A program made the translations under genes and the position numbers. From positions 27,385 through 91,384 of the forward strand of contig CAZBTX010000004.1 of NCBI GenBank assembly GCA_964494945.1: 64,000 bases of DNA. Reading direction: 5' to 3'. Below the pieces are notes generated by a model, which was given only the letters and a program-made list of their open reading frames with translations, was not told the DNA's origin and ran no database searches. This stretch comes from an uncultured Candidatus Saccharibacteria bacterium. Its GTDB lineage: Bacteria; Patescibacteriota; Minisyncoccia; Sungbacterales; JACQCQ01. Of this stretch, positions 16,129 to 58,067 are shown piece after piece (position 1 is the stretch's first letter; each line of letters starts with the position of its first letter).

Positions 16129-17711
16129 ACCGCCAAATCTATCTTGATCACGCACTCGCGGCCTTACCTCGGGTATTAAGCGCGCTGAATCGTACGAAAG
16201 GAATGGAAAGTTTCGGCTGTTTTGACCGAAACTGGTGGCACTATAAAATCACCGATTTCCCCTCGGCGCGTATGCAAGAAGGGGTTTTGACGCTTGCCAT
16301 TCTTTGGAAAGGAGAGTGGAGCCCGTATCGCAGCGATGAAAAGATCTTTGAATGTATCAACGCCGCAATCGACTTTTGGATCTCGCGACAGCATCGGGGC
16401 GGCTCGGTGGAGGAGTGGTACCCGGGCGAGCGAAGCTTTGTGGCAACCGCTTTTTCGCTCTACGCCGTCTCCGAAACTCTGCTGTTAATCCCGGAGCTTA
16501 AGAATCGGCAAATACTTACAGCACACATCCGGCGTTCGGCTGACTGGCTCTTGGGGCGTAGAGAGGAAACGGTAACAAACCAAAATAGCGGGGCGCTGGC
16601 GGCTTTGTATAACGCTTTCCTGCTGACGGGCGATGAACGATATCGTCAGGCCTCAAAAAATCTGGCTAGATTCATAGCCAGCCGCCAATCAAGCGAAGGC
16701 TGGTTTCCCGAATACGGCGGGCCGGACATCGGCTACCTTTCGCTGACCATCGACTATCTCGCCAAATATTATTTGAAATCAAAGGACGACGAGGTAAAAC
16801 CGATGCTTGAAAAAGCCCTAGAGTTCATTTCGCACTTTATTCACCCCGACGGCAGTGCGGGCGGCATTTACGCAAGCCGTAATACCGCCTATCTTATTCC
16901 TTCCGGTTTTGAGGCGCTGGCGAGTGAGTTTCCTATCGCGGCCGCAATCGCAAAAAAAGTTCGCGTGGGTTATCAAACCAACGCCTTGCCGACACCCGAA
17001 ACACTCGATGATCGGTATCTTCTCCAAAATGGATACACATTCTTGCAGGCGCATATGACGGGACTGGCGCGCGAGGAATCCAATGTGCCTGAATTGCCGT
17101 GTGAGACAGAGCGTACTTTCCAATTCCCGCAAGCCGGTATATTGGTGCATTCTGACTCTAAGGTATATTTCGTGGTTAATACTAAAAAGGGCGGCGTTTT
17201 TTACCTGTACGACAAAGAGATAGGAAAAGGAGAATCAAGAGGCGGGCTTGTCCTGCGGCGCGCAAAAAAAGTATATGTTTCCGGCTCGCTGCAAACTCGA
17301 TCAGGGCTAACGAATGATGCGCCTCTTACATTTTTAATCCAAGGAAGTTTGGTGAGAGAAAAAGAGACAAAAGTTTCCGGGACATTCTTCTTTCTCTTGC
17401 GAGCGGCTCACGTTGTCTTTTCTTTTCTGCCGAACGGCGAACAATTCTTAAAGGTCTTTCTGCGTCGGGTGCTTATTTTAAATCGGCGGGAGAGCCGTTG
17501 GAAATTCTCGCGTAAATTCATTTATCAAAATGGGAAACTTGAAGTTGCCGATTATTTCCCGCCGCATATTTTCGATAAAGGATATGCCGGCGGATACGAA
17601 GAGTTCGTTTATGTTCCCTCAAGCCGGCTGTTTCTGGGGTCGCAGCTAAATTCGGACACGCGCGATATAAGCTCTGCCGATCTGAAAATCGGAAAGGTCA
17701 GAGTTTTTTAA
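16125..17711 (+). CDS. Hypothetical protein (possible alpha/alpha-toroid, heparinase II/III-like) in glycan locus
   Basis: It is 528 aa with no TM segment and W/Y-rich helical repeats. Its start is ATGA-coupled to the upstream methyltransferase. Confidence 0.25.
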   Translation: MNRQIYLDHALAALPRVLSALNRTKGMESFGCFDRNWWHYKITDFPSARMQEGVLTLAILWKGEWSPYRSDEKIFECINAAIDFWISRQHRGGSVEEWYPGERSFVATAFSLYAVSETLLLIPELKNRQILTAHIRRSADWLLGRREETVTNQNSGALAALYNAFLLTGDERYRQASKNLARFIASRQSSEGWFPEYGGPDIGYLSLTIDYLAKYYLKSKDDEVKPMLEKALEFISHFIHPDGSAGGIYASRNTAYLIPSGFEALASEFPIAAAIAKKVRVGYQTNALPTPETLDDRYLLQNGYTFLQAHMTGLAREESNVPELPCETERTFQFPQAGILVHSDSKVYFVVNTKKGGVFYLYDKEIGKGESRGGLVLRRAKKVYVSGSLQTRSGLTNDAPLTFLIQGSLVREKETKVSGTFFFLLRAAHVVFSFLPNGEQFLKVFLRRVLILNRRESRWKFSRKFIYQNGKLEVADYFPPHIFDKGYAGGYEEFVYVPSSRLFLGSQLNSDTRDISSADLKIGKVRVF

Positions 17712-19557
17712 CCCAGTGCTCATACCAGACCTGAAAGATGAGCAGTGTCCAGAGTTCTAGGTAGCGGTTCTTGCTGCCGGAGAGATGCTCGTTCATAAGA
17801 GCGGTAACGGCCGCCGGTCTAAAGATATCCTGGCGCTTTAATTTTTGCGGGTCTAGGTATTCCCGGAGTACGGGCTTCAGTATGCCGGAAAACCAACGCG
17901 CGAGTGGCGGCGTTAAACCCTGCTTTTTTTTATCGACGATTTCAGTCCCAAGACGAGGCCGCATAAGTTCGCGCAAAATATATTTTCGTTTCAATCCGCG
18001 GACTTTGTAGCGTTGGGGGAGCGAGATGGCAAAATCAGCCACGCGGGGGTCAAGGAACGGAACGCGGACCTCAAGTGAGTGATACATGCCGGCCCGGTCG
18101 GTTTTCATTAAAATGTCGTCTTGCAGATAGCTCGAAATATAATAGTAAGCGCTTCTTTGAAAATCGTTGAGGTCTCGAGCTTCTCTGTTGCGGTTTGTCA
18201 CGGCCTTAAAGAGCGAATCGCCCAGCGGGCGTTGTACTATCTTGGAAATGAGGTCGGAGTTGATGGCCGATGTCCATTCGGCTTGCCGCAACATCACATC
18301 TTTCTTGTAATTTCCGAAAAAGCGTTCAGCCATAAAGGAAGCGCTCATATACTCACGTGAGGCCGGGAGCATGGTGCGAATCAACCCGCCGATGCCTTTC
18401 ACCGCGCCTTCCGGCAGAGTTCCAAGAATCCGAGCAACGGCCTGGGCCTTAAAGACCTCATACCCGCCGAATAGTTCGTCAGCTCCATCGCCGTCCAGAG
18501 CCACTGTTACTTCTTCCCGCGCGAAACGGCAGAGGAGCGCTGTCGGGAGAAGTGAAGCGTCCGCGAACGGCTCATCCAGCATGGTTGTCAGTTTTTCAAA
18601 CTCGTTCACAACCTCATGTTCGCTGAAGGTCTTCAGACGATGCGTAACACCGGTGCGTTGAGCGGCTAAGCGCGCCGTTTCCGATTCGTCATACGATCTT
18701 TCAGCAAAACCGATCGTGAAGGCCTTGATGTTCGGCGAAATTTTTCTTGCGTAGTAAGCAACAGTGCTTGAATCCACCCCGCCGGAAAGCAGGATTCCCA
18801 GGGGCACGTCGCTTATCATGCGCGACTCGACCGCGCCAGCCAGTTTCGCATCCAATTCGGCTTTGGCTGTTTCAAAAGGTATTTGATTCGCTCCCGGATT
18901 TTTAGGATATTCCCGCCAAGAAAATATCCGCTCCCTTCCGTCTTTGAAAATAAGCGCGTGTGCCGCCGGCAGACGAAAAACATTATTCCAGATGGTTTCC
19001 GGGGTTGGCGTGAAATGATGATAGAGATACCGCAGGGCTCCCGCTTCGTTGAATTCTTTTTTAAAGGCGGGGTGTGCCGCGAGTGCCTTCAGTTCCGAGC
19101 CGAAAAGGAATGTTTCCGGCGTTTTCGTCCAATACAGCGGTTTTTCCCCGAAGCGGTCGCGGGCGAGAAAGAGCATTTCTTTTTTGGCATCCCACAATGC
19201 GATAGCAAACATGCCATCAAGCTCGCTTACCATGTTTTCTCCTTTTTCTTCCCAGAGATGAACCAGTACCTCCGTATCCGAGCGCGTTTTAAAAGTATGC
19301 GTGCTCTCGAGTTTTTTGCGCAATGACGGATAGTTGTAAATCTCACCGTTAAACACCACGGTCACCGTTCCGTCCTCGTTTGATTGCGGCTGCTTGCCGG
19401 TTGAAAGATCAATGATTGAAAGGCGCCGCATGCCAAGATGCGTCCTGCCCGAAATGAAAAAGCCCTCATCATCGGGCCCGCGATGCCTTAAGGTATCCGT
19501 CATATGGCGGAGCGTTCTTTCGTCACCGTCGCCAATGAACCCGGCGATTCCGCACAT
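17698..19557 (-). CDS. asnB: Asparagine synthase (glutamine-hydrolysing) family amidotransferase
   Basis: It has the MCGIAGF N-terminal catalytic Cys2, the SGGVDSS PP-loop, and a length of 619 aa. Confidence 0.8.
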   Translation of the reverse strand: MCGIAGFIGDGDERTLRHMTDTLRHRGPDDEGFFISGRTHLGMRRLSIIDLSTGKQPQSNEDGTVTVVFNGEIYNYPSLRKKLESTHTFKTRSDTEVLVHLWEEKGENMVSELDGMFAIALWDAKKEMLFLARDRFGEKPLYWTKTPETFLFGSELKALAAHPAFKKEFNEAGALRYLYHHFTPTPETIWNNVFRLPAAHALIFKDGRERIFSWREYPKNPGANQIPFETAKAELDAKLAGAVESRMISDVPLGILLSGGVDSSTVAYYARKISPNIKAFTIGFAERSYDESETARLAAQRTGVTHRLKTFSEHEVVNEFEKLTTMLDEPFADASLLPTALLCRFAREEVTVALDGDGADELFGGYEVFKAQAVARILGTLPEGAVKGIGGLIRTMLPASREYMSASFMAERFFGNYKKDVMLRQAEWTSAINSDLISKIVQRPLGDSLFKAVTNRNREARDLNDFQRSAYYYISSYLQDDILMKTDRAGMYHSLEVRVPFLDPRVADFAISLPQRYKVRGLKRKYILRELMRPRLGTEIVDKKKQGLTPPLARWFSGILKPVLREYLDPQKLKRQDIFRPAAVTALMNEHLSGSKNRYLELWTLLIFQVWYEHWVKKL

Positions 19558-21411: not shown

Positions 21412-22853
21412 ACATCATATATCGGCATATGAATAAATCCCCACACCTTCCCACGGGGTCTTCGGGAAGGTGTGGGGATAAATCGGAACGGCGAATATGG
21501 TTAGCCGCGCTAGCAGTTCGCCTTTTGGTGTTCGGTCTGATCATTTGGTCGCTCGGCGGCAACGGTCTTATATCGCTGGGAGACTCAAGTCAATATCTGC
21601 GTCTGGCTAAAGGGCTTTTGGATACCGGAACTCTTAGCGACCCCGGCTTTCCCGGTCTCATAGAGGGTACAAGGCCGCCTGGGTATCCCTTGTATCTCGC
21701 GGCATTCCTGTATTTCGGCGTTCCTTTATGGGTTGCTTCTCTTATTCAAATTATGGCGGCGAGTTTTATTCCCATTTTCGTAATGAAAATAGGAGTCCTT
21801 CTGGGTTTTGAGAGAAAGCTGGTTGCCATAGCCGGGTGGTTCACGACGCTTGAACCGCTTGAAGTTCTATACAGCGTAACGCTTCTTTCCGATGCCTTCG
21901 GCGCGCTTTTCTTTATCGCGGGAGCATATTTTCTGGTTCGTTTCTGGCGTACCAGAGCATGGAAAAATTTGATATTGGCATCGTTAATTTTGGGCGCGAT
22001 GAACTACGTACGACCCATCGCTCTATTTCTCTACATTTTGATACCGGCACTCATATTAGCAGCCGGTTTTATCCTTGAACGCTGGCGCTGGAAAGAGCAT
22101 TTAAAAGCCGCCGTCGTATTTGCCGCAGTTTTTTATTTGGTTTTAACACCTTGGCTCGCGCGAAATTATTACGATTTTAACCACTGGGGCTTCCTCTCCG
22201 CTAACAGCCGCCATCTTTATGATTATTCAGCGGTTGCCGTACGAGCGGCCGCAGAAGGAACAACGTATGAAGAGATGCGGCAAAAAATGAGAAGAGAGAT
22301 ACAGCCCCTGCTTCCTGAGCCGCGCGACATCCGGCAATTCGCTAATCAGGAAGTTTTAGGCAAGAAAGCGATTGAGATAATACTTCAGCATCCCAAAGAA
22401 TATGCCAAACTTTATTTTTTCTCCCTGCAAACATTTTTGATCTCCGGCAACTATCATTTCTTGATGGCTTTTTACGGTCTGATAGACGGCCCCAGTGCGG
22501 GGGATCAATCGTTCACGGTACTGCTTTCCAGCCGCAGTATCACCGATGGTTGGGCGGCGGTGAAGGCATTCATTAGTGAGCCCTATGGATTGATAGCGCT
22601 GATGGGTAGAGTCGTTTGGGGCCTGGTATTTGTTTTATCGCTTTTGGGGACGTGGGTCGCGTATAGGCGATATCCCGAGAGTCGTTTTGGCGCATTGTTT
22701 TATATTTTTCTCCTTTTTTATCTTGCGCTTATTACGTTGAGCTTAGTAACCGGCCTTGAGGCGCGGCACCGGCTGTTCGTGAACCCCTTCTACTTCCTGT
22801 TTATGTCTGCGGCTTTGACCTGGCTTTTTGGCAGATTAAGACGAGCGTCCTGA
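21408..22853 (+). CDS. ArnT/PMT-like (GT39/GT83) GT-C membrane glycosyltransferase
   Basis: It is polytopic and carries PPGYPLYLAAF. Its N-terminal tail contains a perfect 14-bp hairpin. Confidence 0.55.
   Translation: MNIIYRHMNKSPHLPTGSSGRCGDKSERRIWLAALAVRLLVFGLIIWSLGGNGLISLGDSSQYLRLAKGLLDTGTLSDPGFPGLIEGTRPPGYPLYLAAFLYFGVPLWVASLIQIMAASFIPIFVMKIGVLLGFERKLVAIAGWFTTLEPLEVLYSVTLLSDAFGALFFIAGAYFLVRFWRTRAWKNLILASLILGAMNYVRPIALFLYILIPALILAAGFILERWRWKEHLKAAVVFAAVFYLVLTPWLARNYYDFNHWGFLSANSRHLYDYSAVAVRAAAEGTTYEEMRQKMRREIQPLLPEPRDIRQFANQEVLGKKAIEIILQHPKEYAKLYFFSLQTFLISGNYHFLMAFYGLIDGPSAGDQSFTVLLSSRSITDGWAAVKAFISEPYGLIALMGRVVWGLVFVLSLLGTWVAYRRYPESRFGALFYIFLLFYLALITLSLVTGLEARHRLFVNPFYFLFMSAALTWLFGRLRRAS
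21439..21477. repeat. Perfect hairpin CCCCACACCTTCCC-N11-GGGAAGGTGTGGGG in N-terminal codons of GT-C gene (related CCCCACACC core)
   Basis: It was verified. Confidence 0.65.
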
Positions 22854-24299: not shown

Positions 24300-24333
24300 A
24301 ACATTCTCATATTCTCAAGAATATGAGAATGTT
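24300..24333. promoter_or_regulatory. 34-bp perfect palindrome AACATTCTCATATTCT-CA-AGAATATGAGAATGTT 10 bp upstream of oxidoreductase ATG
   Basis: This was checked base by base. The arms are 16 bp with a 2-bp centre. Confidence 0.8.
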
Positions 24334-25826: not shown

Positions 25827-26555
25827 ATGGAAATACTCGCAGTCATTCCCGCCAGAGGCGGGTCAAAGGGCATACCGCGGAAAAATATTAAACTGCTTTG
25901 CGGCAAGCCATTGATTGCTTGGACGATTGAGGAAGCAAAAAAGTCAAAGCATTTGACTCGCGTTATCGTTTCCACCGACGACGAAGAGATCGCGGAAGTT
26001 GCGAAACGATACGGCGCGGAAGTGCCTTTTATGCGTCCTCCCGAAATTTCCGGCGATTTGGCTACCGATGTAGAATTTCTGACGCACGCGCTGGATTTTT
26101 TGAAAGAAAAAGAAAATTACGAACCGGAAATAATTTTGCGTTTGCCGCCGACCTCACCCCTCCGCACGGCGGCGCATATTGATGAAGGCATAGAAGTTTT
26201 ATTAAAAAATCCCGAGGCTGACGCCTCGCGGCCCATGACGGAGGCTCCCAAGCATCCATATAAAATGTGGCGCGTTTCTGCGGAAGATGAGCGTTTTGTG
26301 GAGCCGTTTCTGCCAAAGTCATTTACTCAAATAGACGAACCGTATAACTTGCCGCGCCAGGCCTTGCCGAAAGCCCATATTCATACGGGTGCTATGGATG
26401 TGATGCGGCTTCGCACCGTACGTGAAATGAAATCAACCTCGGGCAAAAAGCTCGCGTATTTTTTCATGAAGCCGGAAGATTCCATAAATATTGATACGCC
26501 GGTTGATTTTGAATTGGCCGAGATCCTGCTGAAAAAGAGGATCGCGCAAGGGTAA
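25827..26555 (+). CDS. CMP-nonulosonic acid synthetase (acylneuraminate cytidylyltransferase family, NeuA/PseF/LegF-like)
   Basis: It carries ILAVIPARGGSKGIPRKN. Confidence 0.75.
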   Translation: MEILAVIPARGGSKGIPRKNIKLLCGKPLIAWTIEEAKKSKHLTRVIVSTDDEEIAEVAKRYGAEVPFMRPPEISGDLATDVEFLTHALDFLKEKENYEPEIILRLPPTSPLRTAAHIDEGIEVLLKNPEADASRPMTEAPKHPYKMWRVSAEDERFVEPFLPKSFTQIDEPYNLPRQALPKAHIHTGAMDVMRLRTVREMKSTSGKKLAYFFMKPEDSINIDTPVDFELAEILLKKRIAQG

Positions 26556-26642
26556 ATTCCGGGAAACCGGCGCCTTGCCAAAGTGGTTTCAAGTATATAG
26601 AATCTATCGGTCAATTTGGTATTGCGAAATTAAATATTCTTA

Positions 26643-27995
26643 ATGAGTGAGAAGAAGATTATTTTCATGACGGTGGAGACCAGCATGGCGGCCAAGGAGT
26701 TTTTGCGCTCGGGAGCGTTTCCTATTCTGAAATCCAAACGCCGCGTGGTGCTCTTCGTTCCGGCCGACAAAGTCGCTTACTACCAGAAGCAGTACGGCGG
26801 AGATTCGGTCTTCATTGAGCCCTTGCCGGAGATTAAGCGCCAAGGGCTGCATTTGATTATTAAAAATGTTGCCTTCAACAGTCTTTCTACGGCGAGCGTC
26901 TGGTATCGCATCTGGGAATCGTATTATTTGACCCATCGGCCGTGGAATCTTGCCATGCGCATTATTTTCTGGCACCTCGGCAAACTAAGAATTTGGCGCG
27001 AAGCCACACGCTTGGCCGAATGGCTGATGCGAGATGATGAGATCTGGCGAACAGTTTTTAATAAATACAATCCGGATTTTGTGCTGTGCACTAATGTCAT
27101 CGGCGAAGCCGACATCTCGTTGATGAAACATGCCAGGCGCCGCGGCAGGGGGGCTTACGCCATGATCCGCGGTTGGGACAACTTAACCTCCAAGGGCACC
27201 ATTCGCTTCAAGCCCGATCAGTTGATGGTTTATAACGAGAATATTAAGCGAGAGGCCGTTGAGTACGGCGACATGCGCGCCGAAAGGATAACCGTTGTAG
27301 GTATGCCGCATTATGATTCATACGTTAATTCCGGATTCTATTGGACGCGGGAGGAATTTTTTCTCCGCCTTGGTCTTGACCCGGCCAAAAAGCTGATTGT
27401 GTATGCCATGGGCGGCAATATCGCGGTTGAGGATCCTTACAATCACGCCAAGATGATAAATGACGCCATTGACAGAGGCGACTTGCCCCCAACTCAGCTT
27501 CTTATAAGAGCTCATCCCAAGTACGATATGACCGTATCGGATATCAGCCAGCTTAAGCACGTGAAATTTTATCAGCCCGGCAAAAAGGTCGCCGGCACCA
27601 GGGGCTGGGAGTTCGAAAAGGAAGACACGATGATCTTGATCAATACGGTTCGCTGGAACGACATTAACATCAACTCGGGTTCCGGCCAGACCCTGGAATC
27701 AGTCATGTTTGACCGGCCGGTGGTGATTTTGGGATTCAACGGATACAAACCCGTGCCTTGGCATAAAAATGTCGGAACCGGGCTCGATCTTTTCACGCAT
27801 TATCGGTACATTGTCCGTTCCGGCGGGGTTACCCGCGCCAATAACGAGCAAGAATTGATTGCGGCCTGTCGCGCCTATCTTGCAAATCCCGCATTGCATC
27901 GAGACGGCAGAAAGCGCATGGTGGAAGATATCGCGGGCAAACTCGATGGCAAATCCAGCGAGCGTCTGGCTACGGCGATTTTGTCGTTGGCGTAA
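26643..27995 (+). CDS. GT-B-like capsule/teichoic-type glycosyltransferase (TagF/KpsS-like); candidate nonulosonic-acid transferase
   Basis: It is 450 aa with no TM segment. Its position right after the CMP-sugar synthetase supports the call. The family assignment is inferred. Confidence 0.3.
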   Translation: MSEKKIIFMTVETSMAAKEFLRSGAFPILKSKRRVVLFVPADKVAYYQKQYGGDSVFIEPLPEIKRQGLHLIIKNVAFNSLSTASVWYRIWESYYLTHRPWNLAMRIIFWHLGKLRIWREATRLAEWLMRDDEIWRTVFNKYNPDFVLCTNVIGEADISLMKHARRRGRGAYAMIRGWDNLTSKGTIRFKPDQLMVYNENIKREAVEYGDMRAERITVVGMPHYDSYVNSGFYWTREEFFLRLGLDPAKKLIVYAMGGNIAVEDPYNHAKMINDAIDRGDLPPTQLLIRAHPKYDMTVSDISQLKHVKFYQPGKKVAGTRGWEFEKEDTMILINTVRWNDININSGSGQTLESVMFDRPVVILGFNGYKPVPWHKNVGTGLDLFTHYRYIVRSGGVTRANNEQELIAACRAYLANPALHRDGRKRMVEDIAGKLDGKSSERLATAILSLA

Positions 27996-28016
27996 CGTGA
28001 TAAGGCGGACAGTGCT

Positions 28017-28934
28017 ATGAATTTTGGCCGATCTATTTTAGGAACATTGTGGAATTCTTCCTCGGTCATGAGCTTAAGGGGTCTTTTCTTTGATTTATGG
28101 GAAATATTATCCAGATATCGTCACGAGAAACAGCGATTCATAAAGATGATGGGTTATCCTCTGGATCTCAAAAACCCGCGAAGTTTCAGCCAGCGTATAG
28201 TTTGGAAAAAAATTTACGACCGGAATCCTCTTTTGCCGATCGTCTGCGATAAATACAGGGTGAGGCAGTATATCAAAGATGTTTTGGGCGAAGAAGAAGC
28301 AGAGAAAGTCCTCATCCCGCTGCTGTATGCTTCTGATAATCCCGACACAATTCCTTTTGATAGTTTAAGCGGAGGATACATCGTGAAGCCCAATCATAAC
28401 TCGGGATCCAATATTATAGTTGAAAAAGGAGTAGCCCCTGACAGGGAAAAAATCATTTCAGATCTAAAAAAGCAGCTTAAATCGGCTTACGGGGTCTTTA
28501 AGCACGAGTGGGCTTACAAAAAAATAAAAAAAAGAATGTTTGTGATCGAAAAGCTGCTTAAAGACGCGAATGGGGGGATACTAAAAGATTATAAATTCCA
28601 TATGATCCATGGAAAATGCGCCTTTATACAAGTTGATTACGACCGATTTTCTAGTCATTCCAGGTCTCTTTACGACAGCAACTGGAATTTCATTAAAACG
28701 ACGCTGAAATATAAACAAGGCCCGATAACGTCCAGACCTTATGAGTTGGGAAAAATGCTTTTGCTGGCCGCCAAATTATCGAAAGGTTTTGATTATATAC
28801 GAGTAGATCTTTACAATATCGGGGATCGGATCTACTTTGGCGAACTGACCCAATATCCCGGATCGGGCGTAGAAAGGTTTACACCTCAGTCCTTTGATTT
28901 TGAACTTGGGAAGTATTGGACAAATAAAAAATGA
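28017..28934 (+). CDS. TupA-like ATP-grasp ligase
   Basis: It is ~300 aa with ..KPNHNSGSNIIV. and KYRVRQYI, the TupA pattern. It is strongly AT-rich at ~38% GC. Confidence 0.55.
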   Translation: MNFGRSILGTLWNSSSVMSLRGLFFDLWEILSRYRHEKQRFIKMMGYPLDLKNPRSFSQRIVWKKIYDRNPLLPIVCDKYRVRQYIKDVLGEEEAEKVLIPLLYASDNPDTIPFDSLSGGYIVKPNHNSGSNIIVEKGVAPDREKIISDLKKQLKSAYGVFKHEWAYKKIKKRMFVIEKLLKDANGGILKDYKFHMIHGKCAFIQVDYDRFSSHSRSLYDSNWNFIKTTLKYKQGPITSRPYELGKMLLLAAKLSKGFDYIRVDLYNIGDRIYFGELTQYPGSGVERFTPQSFDFELGKYWTNKK

Positions 28935-28965
28935 CAGAAAGAAAATTAAAAATCCGCTTTAAGGC

Positions 28966-30855
28966 ATGTGTGGAATCGTAGGCATCAGAGATCCTCGCGG
29001 CGTCCCCTCGGACGTTCTCCAGGCAATGACGCGCGAGCTCGTGCACCGCGGACCCGACGACGAGGGTTTCCTCTATCTCGATAAGGCGAAAGGCGAGTAT
29101 GTCGACGCGCCGAGTGCGCATGCGACCCTTGGCTTCCGGTTCCGGCGGCTCTCCATCGTTGACCTCGGCGCGACCGGCCACCAGCCGATGCTGACACCGG
29201 ACCGCGGCGCGGCGATCATCTTCAACGGCGAGATTTACAATTACCTCGAGCTCCGCGCGGAATTGGAGGCACGCGGTGTGCACTTCCGGGGACGCAGCGA
29301 CTCCGAAGTGATCCTCCACCTGCTCGCCCTTGAAGGTCTGGCCGCTCTCCCGCGCCTCAACGGGATGTTCGCCCTTGCCTTCCATGACCGTCGCACGGGG
29401 ACGCTAATCCTCGCGCGCGACCACGTCGGTATTAAACCGCTCTACTGGCTCCGCGAAGGCCCCGCGATTGTCTGGGCGAGCGAGCCAAAGGCCTTTCTCC
29501 ACTACCCCTCGTTCCGACCAGATGTCAACCGCGAGCGCCTCCACGAATTTTTCCTTTTCCGCCACGTCATTGGACCCGACACGCTTCTCCGCGGCGTGCA
29601 CTCGGTGGAGCCGGGAGGGTACGTACTTATTCGCGACGGCGAAGCGCGGGAAGTGCGCTGGTACAAGCCGCCACCGCACGAGCCCGAGCCATTAACGGAG
29701 GACGAGGCGGCGGCGCGCGTTGATGCCGCCGTCGGCGAAAGCGTGAAGGCGCAGCTCATGAGCGACGTGAAAGTCGGCTGTCAATTGTCCGGCGGTATTG
29801 ATTCCACCCTCATTTCCTGGTGGGCCGCGCGCCATCACGGCTCGCTTTTTGACTCCTTCTCCGTAAGCTTCGACGACCCGCGTTACGACGAGAGTCCGTT
29901 CATAGATGCCGTCGTCGCTAAGTTAGGGCTCGTCGGTCACACTACGCGCCTTGCCACTGATGAAATGGCGGCCTCGCTCCTCGACGCGGCGTGGCATCAC
30001 GATTTCCCCATCAGCCACCCCAACGCTCTCGGTATTTACGCGCTCGCTCGCGAGGCCCGCCGCCACCACGTAACTGTACTTCTCAGTGGCGAGGGCGCGG
30101 ACGAGGTGTTCGGCGGATACGCGCACTACAACCGCGCCGCGTGGCTCGCGCGCCTCAATGCTCTACCCGGCGGCCTCGAACTCGCCCGGTGCCGCGGCCT
30201 CGCGCGCGCGGGCGACCTCGCTCGGGCACTCGTTCTGCTCTCCGCTATCTACGACCCCAAAGTGGTGCGCGAGGCCTGTCCATGGTTCGACGGCGAGCAG
30301 GCACTCCGCGAGCGTCTTGAGCTTTGGGCGGCGACGCCGGAGACGGACGCCCTCGAGCACCTCATGGCCTATGAGCGGCGCGCGTACATGGAGGAATTAC
30401 TCCACCGCCAGGACCGCATGTCGATGACGCACTCTATCGAGAACCGCGTGCCGTACCTCGATCCGCGCGTCCTCGCACTCGCCCGGCGTCTCCCCACGCG
30501 CCTCAAGGTTGCCGTCGGGTTGTTCCCACGCCGCGGCACAGCACCCCGCGCCACGAAGCCGATACTTAAGCGCCTCGTCGCGAACCGCTTCGGCGATAAT
30601 TTCGCCTACCGCGCGAAGTCCGGCTTCGCGTTACCGCTCCGCGCGATCTTCGTAGCACCCGCGTTCGAGGCGACGTGGCCGGCGATCCGCGACGCTGTCG
30701 TCGCACTCTCTGTCGCGGAGGCGCCCGCACTCGATGCCTTGAAGGAGCAGGCACTCCGCGAGGGCGGCGACGCGGCGAAGCTTCTATGGACATTTACAGC
30801 GCTCGGCGCGTGGTGGCGCGGCATCTCGCGCGTAGGCGCGGTATTACGGACGTGA
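28966..30855 (+). CDS. asnB: Asparagine synthase (glutamine-hydrolysing) family amidotransferase, compositionally foreign (~65-70% GC)
   Basis: It has the MCGIVGI start and the SGGIDS PP-loop. Many spurious ORFs overlap it on both strands, as expected for a high-GC segment. Confidence 0.8.
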   Translation: MCGIVGIRDPRGVPSDVLQAMTRELVHRGPDDEGFLYLDKAKGEYVDAPSAHATLGFRFRRLSIVDLGATGHQPMLTPDRGAAIIFNGEIYNYLELRAELEARGVHFRGRSDSEVILHLLALEGLAALPRLNGMFALAFHDRRTGTLILARDHVGIKPLYWLREGPAIVWASEPKAFLHYPSFRPDVNRERLHEFFLFRHVIGPDTLLRGVHSVEPGGYVLIRDGEAREVRWYKPPPHEPEPLTEDEAAARVDAAVGESVKAQLMSDVKVGCQLSGGIDSTLISWWAARHHGSLFDSFSVSFDDPRYDESPFIDAVVAKLGLVGHTTRLATDEMAASLLDAAWHHDFPISHPNALGIYALAREARRHHVTVLLSGEGADEVFGGYAHYNRAAWLARLNALPGGLELARCRGLARAGDLARALVLLSAIYDPKVVREACPWFDGEQALRERLELWAATPETDALEHLMAYERRAYMEELLHRQDRMSMTHSIENRVPYLDPRVLALARRLPTRLKVAVGLFPRRGTAPRATKPILKRLVANRFGDNFAYRAKSGFALPLRAIFVAPAFEATWPAIRDAVVALSVAEAPALDALKEQALREGGDAAKLLWTFTALGAWWRGISRVGAVLRT

Positions 30856-31049
30856 TGCGGCTTCGCACCATACGTGAAATGAGATCCACCTCGGGCAGAA
30901 AACTCACGTATTTTTTAATGAAGCTCGAGGATTCCATAAATATAGACAATCCGATTGATTTTGAGTTGGCAGGGCTTATTCTGCGGCGTCGCCTCGGGGA
31001 CGCATCCTGGAAAACCGGGAGGTCTCTTTTGCGGTTCTATAAAATATAG
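30847..31049 (+). pseudogene. Remnant 3' fragment of a second cytidylyltransferase gene (~85% nt identity to 26395-26540)
   Basis: The remnant translates as DVMRLRTIREMRSTSGRKLTYFLMKLEDSINIDNPIDFELA. This parallels the intact gene's DVMRLRTVREMKSTSGKKLAYFFMKPEDSINIDTPVDFELA. Confidence 0.75.
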
Positions 31050-31108
31050 GCCCGTATTGACGTTTTTGTGGTTTAAGGGTACTAATAGCAAGTATTTAGA
31101 ACTATCGG

Positions 31109-32698
31109 ATGGGTGACCACGCGATGCAGTCAACACTAGGGAACAAAGGAAAATTTGACTTCAACGGCCTTTTTACCTTTGAGATGGCGAACAACCATCA
31201 GGGGTCGGTGGAGCACGGAAAACGCATCATCCAGGAGATGGCGGCTTTGGCGCGAAAACACGGTGTTCGCGCCGCGGTTAAACTCCAATTCAGGGACTTG
31301 GATACCTTTATTCATCCCGATTACCGCGAGAGCACCGAAAATAAGCACATTCAGCGTTTTCTTTCTACGCGGCTTTCGGAGGATGAATTCGGTGAACTTT
31401 TGGCGGAAATAAAAAGCCACGGACTGCTTACGATGGTAACGCCCTTTGACGAAGCGTCCGTGGACGCGATTGAGCGTCTGGGCGCGGATATCATAAAGAT
31501 AGGCAGTTCATCGGCGCATGATTGGCCACTGCTTGAAAGAATTGCCGATACGGGAAAGCCGGTGATTTGCTCCACCGGGGGTTTAATGATCCGTGATATT
31601 GACAGAGTTGTCTCGTTTTTTCAGCACCGCGGCGTGCATTTTGCCATAATGTACTGTGTTTCCATGTACCCGACGCCGAATAATAAACTTCATTTGAATC
31701 AAATTGCCATCATGCGCAATCGTTATCCGGACATAACGGTTGGATGGTCCACGCACGAAAGCCCGTCGGATACCCATACGGTGCGCCTGGCTTACGCCAA
31801 GGGCGCCAGGATATTTGAAAAACACGTGGGAGTGCCGACGGATGAGATTAAATTGAATGCTTACTCCGCAACACCCGAAGAAGCAGACGCCTGGGTCGCG
31901 GCTTATAAGGAAGCGGTTGAGGCCTGCGGTGATAACGCGGAACGCGAAATTGATGAGAAAGAAACAGCCGATTTGAAGTCCCTGATGCGCGGAGTTTACG
32001 CCAAAAAGGAAATTAAAGCCGGTGAGCCGATAAAACGCTCGGACGTATTTTTCGCCATGCCGATAATGGAGGGGCAATTAACCAGTGGCAAATGGAAAGA
32101 GGGGCTTTTGGCTGACCGCGATTATCACGTTCACAAACCCGTAAGCGAGCGCATTTACCCCAATCATAAAAGTAAGAAAGAAATAATTTACTCCACCATA
32201 CACGCCGTAAAGGGCATGCTGAATACCGCGCGCATCCCGCTGGGGCATGATTTTTCCGTGGAGATCTCGCATCACTACGGCGTGGAAAACCTGCATAAGA
32301 TAGGATGCCTTTTGATAGAATGCATTAACCGCGAATACGCCAAGAAGATAATTGTCCAGTTGCCGGGACAGTGGAACCCGGTGCACTACCATAAGAAAAA
32401 GGATGAAACGTTCCAACTGCTTTACGGCGAGTTGTATGTGGAAATTGAAGGCAAAAAGAAAATGCTCTATCCCGGCGATTCGCTTTGGGTTCCTCGTGGC
32501 GTTTGGCACTCTTTCGGTACGGCGACTGGAGCCATCTTTGAAGAAATTTCCACCGCGAGTTTCAACGACGATTCATTTTATGTTGACCGCGAGATAGCCA
32601 AAATGGCTAGGGACGACAGGAAGACCCGGCTCCAAAATTGGGGTCGGCATCAGTTTGATGAGGTTAAAGAAGAAGAGCTAGCTAAGAGTTTGCGCTGA
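31109..32698 (+). CDS. NeuB-family nonulosonic acid synthase fused to C-terminal cupin domain
   Basis: It carries FEMANNHQGS and has the NeuB TIM-barrel length. The C-terminus carries the cupin signature HYH...LYPGDSLWVPRGVWHSF. Confidence 0.7.
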   Translation: MGDHAMQSTLGNKGKFDFNGLFTFEMANNHQGSVEHGKRIIQEMAALARKHGVRAAVKLQFRDLDTFIHPDYRESTENKHIQRFLSTRLSEDEFGELLAEIKSHGLLTMVTPFDEASVDAIERLGADIIKIGSSSAHDWPLLERIADTGKPVICSTGGLMIRDIDRVVSFFQHRGVHFAIMYCVSMYPTPNNKLHLNQIAIMRNRYPDITVGWSTHESPSDTHTVRLAYAKGARIFEKHVGVPTDEIKLNAYSATPEEADAWVAAYKEAVEACGDNAEREIDEKETADLKSLMRGVYAKKEIKAGEPIKRSDVFFAMPIMEGQLTSGKWKEGLLADRDYHVHKPVSERIYPNHKSKKEIIYSTIHAVKGMLNTARIPLGHDFSVEISHHYGVENLHKIGCLLIECINREYAKKIIVQLPGQWNPVHYHKKKDETFQLLYGELYVEIEGKKKMLYPGDSLWVPRGVWHSFGTATGAIFEEISTASFNDDSFYVDREIAKMARDDRKTRLQNWGRHQFDEVKEEELAKSLR

Positions 32699-32757
32699 AA
32701 CGCCGAACTTTTTGCTTGCTCTTTTTCAGGTATGCGAAACCAAAGGAGACAACTCTC

Positions 32758-33402
32758 ATGATAAAAGTAGTGGTGTTTGACTTCGACGACACGCTGGTTC
32801 GCGGGACGGAGTGGAAGAAACAAACCGCGTTTTGGAGTATATTCTGCGACATTCCCGGCGCGGAGGATAAAGCACGGGCGTTCACGATAGAACACCCGGG
32901 CACGGGTCGTCTGGACATGATAACTGGCATTCTGGCGGAACTGGAGCGTTTCGGCATTTTGGACGGCCCCGCTTCGGCAGAATACTATCTAGCGCGCTAT
33001 ACTAAGGCGGCAGAAGACCTACAATCGGCTGCGCCGGCGACGCCGGGTGCCGAAAAAGCGCTTGATGACCTGGTTCGGGCAGGCATCTTGGTCGCTTTGA
33101 ATTCCGCGACGCCCCAGGAGGCGATAGAGCGAGTGCTGGAGATTCGGGGCTGGCGGCATAAATTTGCGGCAGTATGCGGTGCCCCACCCGGCACCAAGAT
33201 GGAGAATCTCGGCAAGATTCTGGCACTCCTCGGCGTTCAAGGACACGAGACCGCGGTTGTCGGAGACGGGCAATCGGACTTGGACGCGGCGATGCGGCAC
33301 GACTGCCGTTTTGTAGCCATTCGCGGCGGGTTATCTCGTTTCGGCCGTAAGGATATGATGATACTGGACGACCTTAACGGCCTCCTGACGGCGTTGGATT
33401 AA
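32758..33402 (+). CDS. HAD-superfamily hydrolase/phosphatase
   Basis: It carries VVVFDFDDTLV, motif I. The start was chosen at MIKVVV. Confidence 0.65.
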   Translation: MIKVVVFDFDDTLVRGTEWKKQTAFWSIFCDIPGAEDKARAFTIEHPGTGRLDMITGILAELERFGILDGPASAEYYLARYTKAAEDLQSAAPATPGAEKALDDLVRAGILVALNSATPQEAIERVLEIRGWRHKFAAVCGAPPGTKMENLGKILALLGVQGHETAVVGDGQSDLDAAMRHDCRFVAIRGGLSRFGRKDMMILDDLNGLLTALD

Positions 33403-33405
33403 GGA

Positions 33406-33445
33406 CGGCCCGCCCCGATGACCATCGGGGCGGGCTACAAAATTT
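33406..33445 (+). terminator. GC hairpin GCCCGCCCCGAT-GACC-ATCGGGGCGGGC followed by A/T-rich tract
   Basis: It is a perfect 12-bp stem. Confidence 0.5.
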
Positions 33446-33483
33446 TAATGATATAATCATTCAATATTCGGTCTATTTACTTT

Positions 33484-34542
33484 ATGAAAATAAAAATAAT
33501 CGGAGCGGGTTCCATAGGCAATCATTTAGCCCAGGCCTCTCGCAGGATGGGCTGGGACGTAGTGGTTGTGGATAAAGACTCGGAAGCGCTTCGGCGCATG
33601 AAAGAGGATATTTATCCGAAGCGTTACGGCGCTTGGGATGAGACCATTCAGCTTTTTACAAGCGATAAAGAACCTAGGGGTGGATTTGACATAATAGCGA
33701 TAGGCACGCCGCCGGATGCGCGGATGAAGCTGGCGCTGGCCGCACTTCGCGAAGAACCTAAAATACTGCAACTGGAAAAACCGCTTTGTCCTCCAACTCT
33801 GGATGGTCTTCAGGAATTTCTTGATGCAGCGGCAAAGCAACCGGAAACGGTGGTAATTGTAGGGTATGACCACGCAGTTGCCGAATCTATCGGCGAGGTG
33901 GTAAGTATTTTGACAGAAAAAAAGATAGGCGAAGTGGAAACGCTGGATGTTGAGTTCCGGGAACACTGGGGCGGTATTTTTGCCGCACATCCATGGCTTA
34001 GCGGTCCGCAAGATTCATATCTCGGTTTTTGGAAGCGGGGAGGGGGTGCGGGCGGAGAACATTCACACGCGTTGCATCTTTGGCAGTTTCTTGCTGGAAA
34101 AGCTGGGATTGGCGCTTGGAAGAAAATGGGGGTTTCCATGGAGATAAAAACCGATGGCGGCACCGAATATGATTCGGTTTCGGCATTTCTCGTAAACACC
34201 GACAAGGGGAAAGTCGGACGGATAGTGCAGGATGTGGTTACCAAACCAGTGCGGAAATGGATGCGAGCCCAGGGCAGTAACGGGTTCGTTGAGTGGTTTT
34301 GCGGTGGGGTACCCGAAGGAGATCTAGTCAGGTTCTCACTCAGTGGGGGAGAGGTCTCGGAAAAGGTATTCCCCAAAAAACGTCCTGACGATTTTTATCG
34401 TGAGATGCTTCATATGCAGGATATTCTTGATGGTAAAATTAAAGCATCGGAGTCGCCGCTTTCGCTTGATAGCGCTTTATCGGTAATAAAAATATTAAAC
34501 AAGGCCTATCAAGCGCGGTCAGGTACTTTCGAGGTTCTCTAG
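33484..34542 (+). CDS. Gfo/Idh/MocA-family NAD(P)-dependent oxidoreductase
   Basis: It has the Rossmann motif IIGAGSIGNH and the EKPL motif. Confidence 0.6.
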   Translation: MKIKIIGAGSIGNHLAQASRRMGWDVVVVDKDSEALRRMKEDIYPKRYGAWDETIQLFTSDKEPRGGFDIIAIGTPPDARMKLALAALREEPKILQLEKPLCPPTLDGLQEFLDAAAKQPETVVIVGYDHAVAESIGEVVSILTEKKIGEVETLDVEFREHWGGIFAAHPWLSGPQDSYLGFWKRGGGAGGEHSHALHLWQFLAGKAGIGAWKKMGVSMEIKTDGGTEYDSVSAFLVNTDKGKVGRIVQDVVTKPVRKWMRAQGSNGFVEWFCGGVPEGDLVRFSLSGGEVSEKVFPKKRPDDFYREMLHMQDILDGKIKASESPLSLDSALSVIKILNKAYQARSGTFEVL

Positions 34543-34675
34543 CATGCGAGGTTCTCTAGCACGGAAGAAAAAACCATCTTCATAACGGAGCCGCATTTGA
34601 ATGGACTGACTTGGCTACGCGTTACGAAAGATTTACTTATTTGCCTTTTCCCCATCAATTCGTAGAATAGGTCTT

Positions 34676-49303: not shown

Positions 49304-49433
49304 TTCTAACGGGGATGATCCCGTTAGAAGCCGCGATCGCGGAAGCGGGATTTAAAGTTAAAGGATGTTATATTCAAAGAAAATAATATGGGCAGATTTG
49401 CGCGTTTGATCGCGATCTGCTTCTAACGGGATG
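49304..49433. repeat. Palindromic TIR element copy B with extra half-site; CYTH gene ATG inside right arm
   Basis: The arms are ATCCCGTTAGAAGC at 49318-49331 and GCTTCTAACGGGAT at 49419-49432. An upstream half-site TTCTAACGGG lies at 49304-49313. Confidence 0.75.
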
Positions 49434-49949
49434 AAGGAAATAGAGCTAAAATTCAGGGTTGCCAATTTTAAGGAAATTATTCCCAAATTAAAGAAGTTGG
49501 GCGGTAAATGCGTTTGGCGTGGGATAGAAGAAAGTTATTTTTACGATACACCCGCCAAAACCTTAAAAAGAAAGCATCAAATGCTGCGACTACGTTCATG
49601 GGCGGAGCATAGCTATTCGCTGGCGTTAAAATTGGAGCCGGAGCATTCGCACAAACGTTATAAGGTAAGAGATGAATTTCAGATAATTGTGGATGACATT
49701 AATGCGACCCGCGAAATCTTAAAGCATTTGGGATTCGTGGAATATATAAGATACAAGAAATATCGCGAGCATTGGAAACTGCCCGGGGCCTTCATAGAAC
49801 TTGATACTCTAAAACATCTGCATTTCGTGGAAATTGAAGCGTCTAAGGATCGTATTAATCAATTAGCTCAAATTTTGCGATTGGACTGGGGCCAAACTAC
49901 AACTCAAGGTTACCTTTCAATTTTAAGGGATTTAAATAGGGACGCTTGA
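49431..49949 (+). CDS. CYTH-domain protein (class IV adenylate cyclase / triphosphatase-like)
   Basis: The N-terminal EIELKF motif (ExExK) is present. The protein is 172 aa. Confidence 0.6.
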   Translation: MKEIELKFRVANFKEIIPKLKKLGGKCVWRGIEESYFYDTPAKTLKRKHQMLRLRSWAEHSYSLALKLEPEHSHKRYKVRDEFQIIVDDINATREILKHLGFVEYIRYKKYREHWKLPGAFIELDTLKHLHFVEIEASKDRINQLAQILRLDWGQTTTQGYLSILRDLNRDA

Positions 49950-57149: not shown

Positions 57150-57557
57150 TTATTGCCGAAGAACTTCTGCGAAGAACTTGGCTCCGGCAGTGCCGATCTC
57201 CGCAGATACAAACTGGTATCCCGGCTCCACGCGGAACGCGAAGCGTGGTACTTCAGGGAGGTGATCTGCGCATACGGTTGCCGAAACCGGACTCCACCCG
57301 GCCGATGACCCGCCATGCAACCCTCGACCTTTCAGGAATCGGCAGTAGATCGCGGATTCCTTGGGCCAGCGTGCGGGACGGATTATAACATCAAGATCAT
57401 CGTCCGCACCGAGTCTCCCAACGAACTCATAGTCGAAGCCACTCGCTACATCCCATCCCCTCACCCGAAGGGCAAAGAGAATGTTCAGTCGCGCGAGAAG
57501 CTCAGCAACGGCGAAGTCGAGAGCTCCGAGCTTCCGCTCTGTGGCCTTCTGGCGCAT
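57150..57557 (-). CDS. Hypothetical protein (GC-rich island), 6 nt downstream of REC-like gene
   Basis: The ORF on this strand is protein-like. The antisense ORF 57315-58004 was rejected. Confidence 0.35.
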   Translation of the reverse strand: MRQKATERKLGALDFAVAELLARLNILFALRVRGWDVASGFDYEFVGRLGADDDLDVIIRPARWPKESAIYCRFLKGRGLHGGSSAGWSPVSATVCADHLPEVPRFAFRVEPGYQFVSAEIGTAGAKFFAEVLRQ

Positions 57558-57563
57558 GGCGGG

Positions 57564-58067
57564 CTACTTCCACCACTTCGCACTGCGCGTGAGGCAGATG
57601 TCGTACCGCTGATGCTCTGCGCACCGGCCCTTCTCGGTGAGCCACTTCAGCAGCTTGAACGCCAAGTCCCATCGCTTCTCGGGTGCGTCCTTGAAGAGGT
57701 CGCGCGACGCGTCGATGATACCCGGCCAGCGAAGAGCGAGCGACAGCTCGTGGATCCACTGGTACTTCGGTCCGTGGTGATACCCCGCGGTGTTCAGAGT
57801 ACATGGGATCCCGCGCTCCCAGCAGATCATCATGACACTGACACCGATCGGCTCGGGCGTGGTGTACGTGTCGCCCTGATACTTGCTGTACGGAGCGAAC
57901 GGGAAGTAGATGTCGGAGATTACGCCATCGACCATGCCAGGCATGAGATGCTCGATTGCCCCGTGCATGGTACTGACGTAGACCACTTCGATCCCTTCCT
58001 GTGACGCGAAAAACTGCTTTGCGTCGGCCACGTGCTTGGCATCATCCTCGATCACAAGGATCTTCAT
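57564..58067 (-). CDS. Stand-alone CheY-like receiver (REC)-fold domain protein
   Basis: It has the MKILVIEDD N-terminus, an Asp at the ISDIYFP position, and a later Thr and Lys. An AGGAGG sequence lies 8 nt upstream. Confidence 0.4.
   Translation of the reverse strand: MKILVIEDDAKHVADAKQFFASQEGIEVVYVSTMHGAIEHLMPGMVDGVISDIYFPFAPYSKYQGDTYTTPEPIGVSVMMICWERGIPCTLNTAGYHHGPKYQWIHELSLALRWPGIIDASRDLFKDAPEKRWDLAFKLLKWLTEKGRCAEHQRYDICLTRSAKWWK

Follow-up and report, generated by a model that had tools for sequence, protein, structure and literature searches.

Surface-glycan loci are recombination hot spots in well-studied bacteria, and remnant genes and an atypical G+C content (GC) are common in surface-polysaccharide loci. 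For the Candidate Phyla Radiation (CPR), whose members are believed to rely on surface contact with other cells, glycan biology is to our knowledge essentially unstudied. We describe here a stretch of 64 kb (the window, meaning the whole analysed piece of contig CAZBTX010000004.1) from an uncultured groundwater Candidatus Sungbacteria (CPR), which contains a nonulosonic-acid (NulO) surface-glycan locus. In this locus a GC-rich gene for an AsnB-type amidotransferase, the last gene of a three-gene block, abuts a truncated second copy of the 3' end of the CMP-nonulosonate cytidylyltransferase gene (in the following synthetase), an arrangement which probably represents the scar of a cassette import. 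No paper linking nonulosonic acids with Patescibacteria was found in the literature searched.

Several described systems resemble parts of this locus. In Escherichia coli a single crossover of a re-circularised fragment leads to duplications of 109-950 bp of the homologous locus; classical homology-facilitated illegitimate recombination couples insertion with deletion (PMC3240628). [quoted passage not shown] Among the enzymes, an AsnB-domain protein, predicted to be an amidotransferase, belongs to the pseudaminic acid (Pse) O-glycosylation cluster of Tannerella forsythia (PMC6120980). BFO_1060 is a strain homologue of the T. forsythia transferases for pseudaminic/legionaminic-acid derivatives, which have a TagB-superfamily domain (PMC5420450). 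[quoted passage not shown]

Direct repeats and the synthetase remnant

Two imperfect direct repeats, 26388-26611 and 30840-31108, enclose exactly three genes. The features concerned are the following.

25827-26555, plus strand: intact CMP-nonulosonate (acylneuraminate-type) cytidylyltransferase, 242 amino acids (Pfam CTP_transf_3)
26388-26611, plus strand: left copy of the direct repeat (BLASTN, repeat search, promoter scan)
26643-27995, plus strand: TagB/TagF-like (GT-B type) transferase, 450 amino acids (family-wide profile matches)
28017-28934, plus strand: TupA-like ATP-grasp amidoligase, 305 amino acids, GC 40% (Pfam ATPgrasp_TupA)
28966-30855, plus strand: AsnB-type glutamine amidotransferase, 629 amino acids, GC 65%, compositionally foreign (Pfam, TIGR01536, GC)
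30840-31108, plus strand: right copy of the direct repeat, with the synthetase 3' end as a 5'-truncated remnant, followed by the spacer (BLASTN, repeat search)
30855-31049, plus strand: open reading frame (ORF) of 64 amino acids within the remnant, its ATG overlapping the AsnB stop (TGATG); a hypothetical protein in public assemblies

The intact synthetase starts at ATG 25827 (the mechanical ORF begins at TTG 25809). It matches CTP_transf_3 with 95.9 bits (cut-off 22.6), and against PseF TIGR03584 it scores 155.4 bits, which is under the cut-off of 205.7. Related loci were collected with the synthetase as query; 80 were retrieved, and the protein is 86% identical to its counterpart in the closest of them (L001).

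BLASTN aligns 30845-30970 with 26393-26518 over 126 bp at 85.7% identity (E 1.2e-37), and the repeat search gave the pair 26388-26531 / 30840-30983 (D1; 144 nt, 82%). An earlier note on this DNA had described a remnant of ~200 bp with ~85% identity. This holds for the 126-bp core but not beyond it: the last ~30 nt of the synthetase are 43% identical between the copies, and all 158 aligned columns 76.6%. The earlier note had named uniform GC, or no significant similarity between the two segments, as outcomes that would speak against it; what we see are steps in GC, described below, and the alignment just given. The peptides DVMRLRT(I/V)REM...DSINID...DFELA are present in the remnant as reported there, and the AsnB stop codon (TGA, 30853-30855) does lie inside it.

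The remnant covers only the last ~54 of the 242 synthetase codons. The native synthetase stop is gone, so that the frame continues to 31049, and Glu42, invariant among the 45 synthetase homologues listed, is changed. Homology to part of a gene, absence of the catalytic part and these signs of decay (lost stop, altered conserved residues) characterize the segment as a gene remnant. The 64-amino-acid ORF within it gave no Pfam match at E <= 1. It is called as a gene, likewise without Pfam match, in three further contigs (L081, L082, L097) and is probably a pseudogene fragment.

The similarity extends past the synthetase stop. There both copies share, with indels, a small hairpin (CCGGGAAACCGG / CCTGGAAAACCGGG) and the spacer motif GTGGTTT..AAGTAT.TAGAA, and both end with CTATCGG just ahead of the next ATG, which is that of the 450-amino-acid transferase on the left (26643) and that of the NeuB gene on the right (31109). 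The left copy comprises the last ~56 synthetase codons, the hairpin and, at 26575-26603, the promoter-like sequence TTGCCA-17-TAGAAT, which reaches a scan score of 10/12 and is also present in the synthetase-NeuB spacer of L001. The right spacer copy is degenerate, ~50 bp longer and carries a terminator-like hairpin (31005-31020). In the scan the numbers of promoter and terminator sites were not above shuffled expectation.

The remnant has a host-like GC of 0.44-0.47 and adjoins DNA of 67% GC. At the nucleotide level it is 84% identical to the intact copy and 67% to L001, to which the intact copy is 75% identical; among 120 synthetase homologues there was no relative closer to the remnant than the window's own intact synthetase. 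Host-like GC and closest affinity to the resident gene therefore identify the remnant as CPR DNA, which lies outside the GC-rich import.

In a comparison of 42 codons, 9.5 synonymous and 9.5 non-synonymous changes separate the intact copy from the remnant, for a ratio of non-synonymous to synonymous rates (dN/dS) of 0.22. The expectation for two neutral copies is rejected (P = 0.003). The observed value lies between the expectations for two constrained copies (P = 0.016) and for one copy neutral since duplication (P = 0.066). The C-terminal tail of the remnant (RRRLG, last ten codons) matches L001 at 21 of 30 nt, and the intact tail matches the remnant at 13 of 30. These few sites hint at a different ancestry of the two tails.

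A foreign AsnB gene in a mosaic block

The AsnB protein is full length in comparison to its homologues. It matches Pfam Asn_synthase (234.6 bits), GATase_7 (140.9 bits) and GATase_6 (127.6 bits) and passes the cut-off of TIGR01536 (409.7 bits, cut-off 267.1). The N-terminus reads MCGIVG and the SGGIDS motif is kept; in an alignment of 12 homologues Cys2, the nucleophile after the initiator Met, as well as S275, G276, G277, D279 and S280 are invariant. The protein therefore has the build of its family, a class II glutamine amidotransferase (GATase) domain with N-terminal Cys followed by a C-terminal Asn_synthase PP-loop domain with SGGxDS. An assignment to housekeeping asparagine synthesis is not reached, with 236.6 bits against the cut-off of 499 for the AsnB equivalog NF006949, the nearest solved relative in the PDB search is the hydroxyamidotransferase 7ylz, and both the gene and its relatives are located in glycan loci. 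The window version differs from the public protein by one residue (nt 29137). Within the gene a perfect 18-nt direct repeat occurs at 30295-30312 and 30745-30762, 450 nt apart, both copies encoding EQALRE.

With the 41 other ORFs of the window as baseline for GC and for GC at third codon positions (GC3), the AsnB gene stands out clearly. Its GC is 0.654 and its GC3 0.770, compared to a mean GC of 0.489 (sd 0.034) for the other ORFs, which corresponds to z = +4.8 and +4.7, respectively. GC1 and GC2 are raised too, and 300-bp windows within the gene range from 0.60 to 0.71; the earlier note had given 65-70%. The maximum-likelihood GC change points lie at 28993 (support 28953-28999) at the start of the gene and at 30842 (support 30832-30900) at its end. 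As the first interval includes the ATG at 28966, the reported coincidence of GC shift and start codon is borne out. Antisense and alternative-frame ORFs are present over the gene, as had been noticed, and are an expected by-product of high GC. AsnB is a compositionally foreign gene; its GC z-score and the change points at gene borders are those expected of a horizontally acquired one.

The ATP-grasp gene upstream is indeed low in GC, at 0.401 (z = -2.6) instead of the 38% given before. Another change point, 28016, falls on the border between the 450-amino-acid transferase gene and the ATP-grasp gene. With GC values of 51%, 40% and 65% for its three genes and changes at the gene borders, the block is a compositional mosaic and not one unit. 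From the earlier view of the block as a single segment the scar at the right edge is retained, and the compositional unity is not.

Gene order in related loci

Downstream of the right repeat the locus continues with genes that are shared with many relatives.

31109-32698, plus strand: NeuB-cupin fusion (Pfam)
32716-33402, plus strand: HAD phosphatase (Pfam)
33484-34542, plus strand: GFO/IDH/MocA oxidoreductase (Pfam)
31109-34542, plus strand: conserved core of these three genes (NeuB-cupin, HAD, GFO), the usual direct successor of the synthetase (Pfam and comparison of the 80 loci)

In the comparison of the locus across relatives, which had been proposed as a check, the synthetase is directly followed by the NeuB-cupin gene in 47 of the 80 related loci, so that the block in the window has to be regarded as an insertion. 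A cassette replacement, as the earlier note had put it, is not what the relatives indicate; they show an insertion between synthetase and NeuB, and nothing was seen to be replaced. The gene order in L001 is PMT-synthetase-NeuB-cupin-HAD-GFO-[450-amino-acid gene]-Wzy. Compared to the common order, the window has the block between synthetase and NeuB, and its 450-amino-acid gene, 78% identical to the gene located after GFO in L001, is placed differently from L001. The ATP-grasp is absent from all 80 related loci, and where they have an AsnB its identity does not exceed 36%.

At the GFO end, the position of the 450-amino-acid gene in L001, a perfect 15-nt repeat (CGAGGTTCTCTAGCA) occurs twice (34530-34561), with starts 17 nt apart and the GFO stop within the first copy. 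It may be the scar of a small deletion or insertion.

Origin of the AsnB and ATP-grasp genes

The nearest full-length AsnB homologues are 48-54% identical (54%, 50%, 50% and 48%) and lie on contigs of 53-69% GC, one of which has 69% throughout (L085) and the other three 53-59%. All four contexts are polysaccharide loci. NeuB and/or CTP_transf_3 genes are found near the homologue in three of them (L085, L086, L179), and the fourth (L178) is another polysaccharide locus. These contexts tie the AsnB clade to nonulosonic-acid and polysaccharide loci, GC-rich hosts included. A horizontal acquisition of AsnB from a high-GC donor, as suggested earlier, is backed by the foreign composition; as to the donor, identity to full-length homologues does not exceed 54% and one homologue is on the 69%-GC contig.

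In two of these contigs, both with GC-rich nonulosonic-acid loci (L085, 8001-11224; L179, 8001-11383), the gene after the AsnB homologue codes for a CapK-like enzyme of the adenylate-forming type, and the locus includes a NeuB-CTP_transf_3 fusion. The CapK-like proteins share 52% identity and represent a tailoring partner of AsnB different from the ATP-grasp of the window. The conserved neighbours of the AsnB homologues, with 514-529 amino acids, showed no detectable similarity to the 450-amino-acid gene.

Homologues of the ATP-grasp with 60-75% identity occur in CPR-type glycan loci of 33-35% GC, where they are followed by a DUF362 gene and not by AsnB. The pair itself was found once more, on a 2.2-kb contig from run SRR22388032 (L091), which contains the end of a Wzy-TPR gene, an ATP-grasp gene (75% identical at the amino acid level), 5 bp, and a partial AsnB gene that is 80% identical over the first 265 residues. 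The contig has continuous nucleotide homology (73%) to window positions 28011-29760. The adjacency of ATP-grasp and AsnB therefore recurs in another organism, and AsnB was not simply dropped beside an unrelated gene. In a metagenome scan with two N-terminal peptide patterns the relatives of the L091-type AsnB reached at most 46% identity.

The two versions of the pair differ in composition. GC3 of ATP-grasp and AsnB is 0.64 and 0.59 in L091 and 0.44 and 0.77 in the window, at a host mean of 0.53, and synonymous sites between the versions are saturated (proportion of synonymous differences, pS, 0.66-0.76). These values suggest that the ATP-grasp and AsnB genes of the window recently resided in genomes of different composition, which implies either gene-by-gene replacement at the gene borders or a donor that was already mosaic. 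The common order may have been kept because both enzymes work together. AsnB would ultimately come from a GC-rich lineage whose AsnB clade belongs to NulO loci, and the ATP-grasp would be of a low-GC CPR type.

How the scar could have arisen

We regard the feature as the recombination scar of a cassette import into a NulO locus that is a gene-by-gene mosaic, a reading which we consider somewhat better than an even bet. The ancestral order would have been synthetase-NeuB-cupin-HAD-GFO, and the present one would result from a block of 4.2 kb (TagB-like transferase, TupA-type ATP-grasp, AsnB) placed between synthetase and NeuB. The exact route, a single crossover of a circularised fragment, is proposed with less confidence. 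DNA of a related lineage, with a synthetase followed by the block genes, would have been taken up and circularised; the circle would have been closed at the joint between the AsnB end and the synthetase fragment, at ~30840, and would have integrated through one homologous crossover in the synthetase 3' end. One intact synthetase and one 5'-truncated copy would be left, the latter of which would later have decayed by loss of the stop codon and changes in conserved residues.

What is found at the locus has the form of an insertion-duplication: the insert lies between direct repeats of its target, of which the left one belongs to the intact gene and the right one is the 5'-truncated copy. The duplications that flank inserts in E. 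coli (PMC3240628) favour a single-crossover import. The earlier note had the segment recombine into a second copy of the synthetase gene. The scar itself is there, and a pre-existing second copy is one option only, for the repeat includes the downstream spacer, which fits an insertion-duplication starting from a single resident synthetase. Altogether the observation of the earlier note is confirmed and its interpretation is supported in part.

Several points weigh against an import of this kind. The repeat copies are 14-18% diverged, so that either the event is old or the donor was diverged, and the dN/dS data with their 19 changes cannot separate these two cases. Given the GC values of the block, a single imported fragment would itself need to be mosaic. 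The 450-amino-acid gene is gone from its position after GFO, as compared to L001, which calls for a second event or another ancestral order. A donor with the order synthetase-ORF450-ATPgrasp-AsnB was not found in the loci examined, nor was a strain of the same species with an empty site. Finally, the functional statements made below all rest on family membership and context.

An in-situ tandem duplication followed by reciprocal loss is the best of the other explanations, and we judge it unlikely. Starting from the order synthetase-NeuB-HAD-GFO-ORF450-ATPgrasp-AsnB-Wzy, the segment from within the synthetase to the end of AsnB would have been doubled, with the AsnB/remnant joint as duplication junction; the first copy would then have lost NeuB-HAD-GFO and the second ORF450-ATPgrasp-AsnB. 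This scenario yields exactly the order now seen, with ORF450 displaced as compared to L001, and it accounts for a truncated copy that starts right at the AsnB end. The greater identity of the two copies to each other (84%) than of either to L001 (75% and 67%) agrees with it as well, and the dN/dS of 0.22 is not significantly off the expectation for one neutral copy (P = 0.066). However, three events are needed and the ancestral order is absent from all 80 loci. In L091 Wzy is located upstream of the ATP-grasp and not downstream of AsnB. The C-terminal tails differ at 17 of 30 nt and that of the remnant is L001-like, which is unexpected for sister copies, and identical repeats of 220 bp would tend to recombine the block out.

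Less probable again, and in our view doubtful, is that a second, full-length synthetase was resident and was partly deleted. The block would once have been located between two complete synthetase genes, and the AsnB end would have become fused to about codon 190 of the second one. Two synthetase genes do occur together in six of the related loci (L005, L006, L008, L010, L019, L024), and the remnant frame is open and shows signs of past purifying selection. The second copies of these relatives, though, are 38-54% identical at the protein level, compared to 84-86% at the nucleotide level for the copies of the window. As AsnB is full length, the deletion must moreover have ended exactly at its last codons, and the duplicated spacer upstream of ORF450 is left unexplained.

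That the remnant is no scar at all but a functional small gene, coding for a 64-amino-acid protein translationally coupled to AsnB via TGATG, is very improbable. Its frame is open for 64 codons, its start overlaps the AsnB stop, and dN/dS to the intact copy is 0.22; it is, however, nothing but the last quarter of a 242-amino-acid enzyme, the whole N-terminal part of which is absent, it has lost the native stop and the invariant Glu mentioned above, it has no family match, and it was found in this population only.

An assembly chimera, with a GC-rich contig of another organism joined into the Sungbacteria contig, could be suspected from the abrupt GC steps at gene borders and the metagenome-assembled genome (MAG) as source, but is largely refuted and extremely improbable, as the window is 99.9% identical over 20.7 kb to an NCBI Sungbacteria MAG contig (JACOYZ010000015.1, GCA_016181625.1) with the same junctions and 99.9-100% identical to separate contigs of independent Logan assemblies from five runs (SRR12113430, -383, -385, -420 and -424), several of them reaching across both borders of AsnB, and as the genes are tightly spaced in a single orientation and the succession of ATP-grasp and AsnB is found again in an unrelated sample (L091).

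Among the matching NCBI MAG and Logan contigs none was found that lacks the block. The NCBI MAG differs from the window at two places: a 16-bp deletion (window 22302-22317) splits the first PMT_2 gene into two ORFs, and its contig match ends at 20178 in a glycosyltransferase family 2 (GT2) gene, with a DNA-ligase fragment upstream instead. This is either a strain-level structural variation or a misjoin in that MAG.

A transposon, insertion sequence or integron cassette was rejected as the source of the block: the ORFs scanned between 8.5 and 39.5 kb contain no transposase or integrase domains, and the repeat search found no inverted repeats that bracket the three genes.

Predicted functions of the three block genes

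The earlier label GT-B-like for the first gene of the block is supported by its family rather than by the protein itself. The window protein has no Pfam match past threshold; sub-threshold hits are the NCBIfam BFO_1060 family glycosyltransferase (43 bits, cut-off 200) and Pfam Glyphos_transf (E 0.006). Glyphos_transf is matched by 10 of 11 members of the family (best E 2.5e-9), which has members in 30 or more of the 80 related loci. In a PDB profile search the family profile matches TarL 8va1 weakly (E 0.034). A PDB sequence search with the single sequence gave nothing useful, and a single-sequence AlphaFold model was unusable (mean predicted local distance difference test score, pLDDT, 34.9). 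Together with the BFO_1060 match the family-wide matches make the protein a candidate nonulosonic-acid transferase.

The ATP-grasp protein matches PF14305 (ATPgrasp_TupA) over its full length (184 bits, cut-off 25, profile positions 2-239 of 241), and its homologues carry the NCBI name 'ATP-grasp fold amidoligase family protein'. The public annotation gives 261-262 amino acids. Homologues with 60-75% identity cover 97-100% of 305 amino acids, so that the start at 28017, 22 nt past the preceding stop, is right and the public call of 261 amino acids too short. A PDB sequence search with this protein detected no match to any solved structure.

According to these assignments, the block likely serves to transfer nonulosonic acid and to modify a sugar carboxylate by amide formation. 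The transferase would add the nonulosonic acid to the glycan, and two ATP-dependent amide-forming enzymes would tailor a sugar carboxylate, one by ligating an amine or amino acid and the other by amidation with glutamine-derived ammonia. More tentatively, ATP-grasp and AsnB could form a previously uncharacterised two-enzyme module that tailors NulO, or a neighbouring sugar acid, with amides and is mobile between GC-rich and CPR bacteria, its genes being swapped at the boundaries while their order is kept; we think this possible and not the likelier case. Within such a module the ATP-grasp may ligate the amine or amino acid and AsnB may amidate the carboxylate. If true, an ultra-small bacterium would have imported part of its surface-glycan locus from another phylum.

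Other features of the locus

The glycan locus extends over ~8.5-39.5 kb of the window. According to Pfam it codes for glycosyltransferases, a flippase-type Polysacc_synt protein, a carbamoyltransferase and methyltransferases, as well as for two PMT_2 proteins, a Wzy_C-TPR protein and a Bac_transf priming transferase. Another amidotransferase of AsnB type (619 amino acids, 17698-19557, minus strand) is encoded with a normal GC of 0.52 and is only 30% identical to the GC-rich AsnB, so the locus contains two unrelated AsnB paralogues.

In the core, the NeuB scores under the NeuB and PseI equivalog cut-offs. The partners of the synthetase, NeuB with a C-terminal cupin followed by HAD and GFO, form a set seen in loci from CPR, Chloroflexota and others. 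The phosphatase in the core suggests a phosphorylated sugar precursor; the KDN-9-phosphate type route is an example of such a pathway. The HAD phosphatase gene has an elevated GC of 0.57 (z = +2.4) and its product is 43% identical to the L001 counterpart, as compared to 80% and 70% for the flanking NeuB-cupin and GFO; the HAD region of L001 is likewise GC-elevated. A gene-specific bias could explain this, or the gene may have been swapped as well.

Between the second PMT_2 gene and an FAD oxidoreductase gene, at 24300-24333, two 16-nt arms (AACATTCTCATATTCT / AGAATATGAGAATGTT) form a perfect inverted repeat around a 2-nt spacer; this element may be an operator or terminator. Other compositional outliers are a 229-amino-acid ORF at 57315-58004 (59% GC, without family match, overlapped by an antisense ORF) and a CYTH-domain gene at 49431-49949 (40% GC). 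The tRNA and Rfam scans found neither tRNA genes nor Rfam families in the window.

Comparison with known systems

The event is of a known kind, with no new mechanism and no new kind of element. What the locus offers for a CPR (Sungbacteria) genome is a gene-by-gene mosaic whose junction scar is clean, a concrete and datable case of the entry of foreign DNA into such a genome. It also nominates an enzyme trio for nonulosonic-acid transfer and amide tailoring.

With the insertion-duplications of E. coli (PMC3240628) the locus shares that part of the target is duplicated around the insert (here ~220-270 bp, there 109-950 bp) and that one copy completes the gene, the other being truncated. It differs from them in that the copies are 14-18% diverged and the event is deduced from one genome. 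Classical homology-facilitated illegitimate recombination joins insertion to deletion (PMC3240628), whereas a duplication is seen here. As in the T6SS and Rhs loci of V. cholerae (PMC5361080), a conserved upstream gene anchors the import of a non-homologous cassette, and displaced 3' fragments of the conserved gene stay downstream as scars. However, the cargo here would be glycan-tailoring enzymes and not toxin-immunity pairs, and there is one scar instead of an array.

The ATP-grasp protein belongs to the same ATPgrasp_TupA family as the C-terminal domain of Cj1438 from the C. jejuni HS:2 capsule (PMC11800379) and is likewise encoded in a polysaccharide locus. Amide formation on a sugar carboxylate by Cj1438 may serve as a model for its chemistry, although the window protein is a stand-alone protein of 305 amino acids, not fused to a GT2 domain. 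In the T. forsythia cluster (PMC6120980, PMC5420450; pse genes, GtfS, asnB), too, genes for NulO synthesis are found in one locus with those for a TagB-like transferase of NulO and an amidotransferase of AsnB type. In contrast to it, the locus described here is from a CPR host, has a NeuB-cupin/HAD/GFO core instead of pseBCFHGI and contains a TupA-type ATP-grasp in addition. Like mosaic polysaccharide loci of the T. forsythia type, it appears to be built gene by gene and is compositionally heterogeneous.

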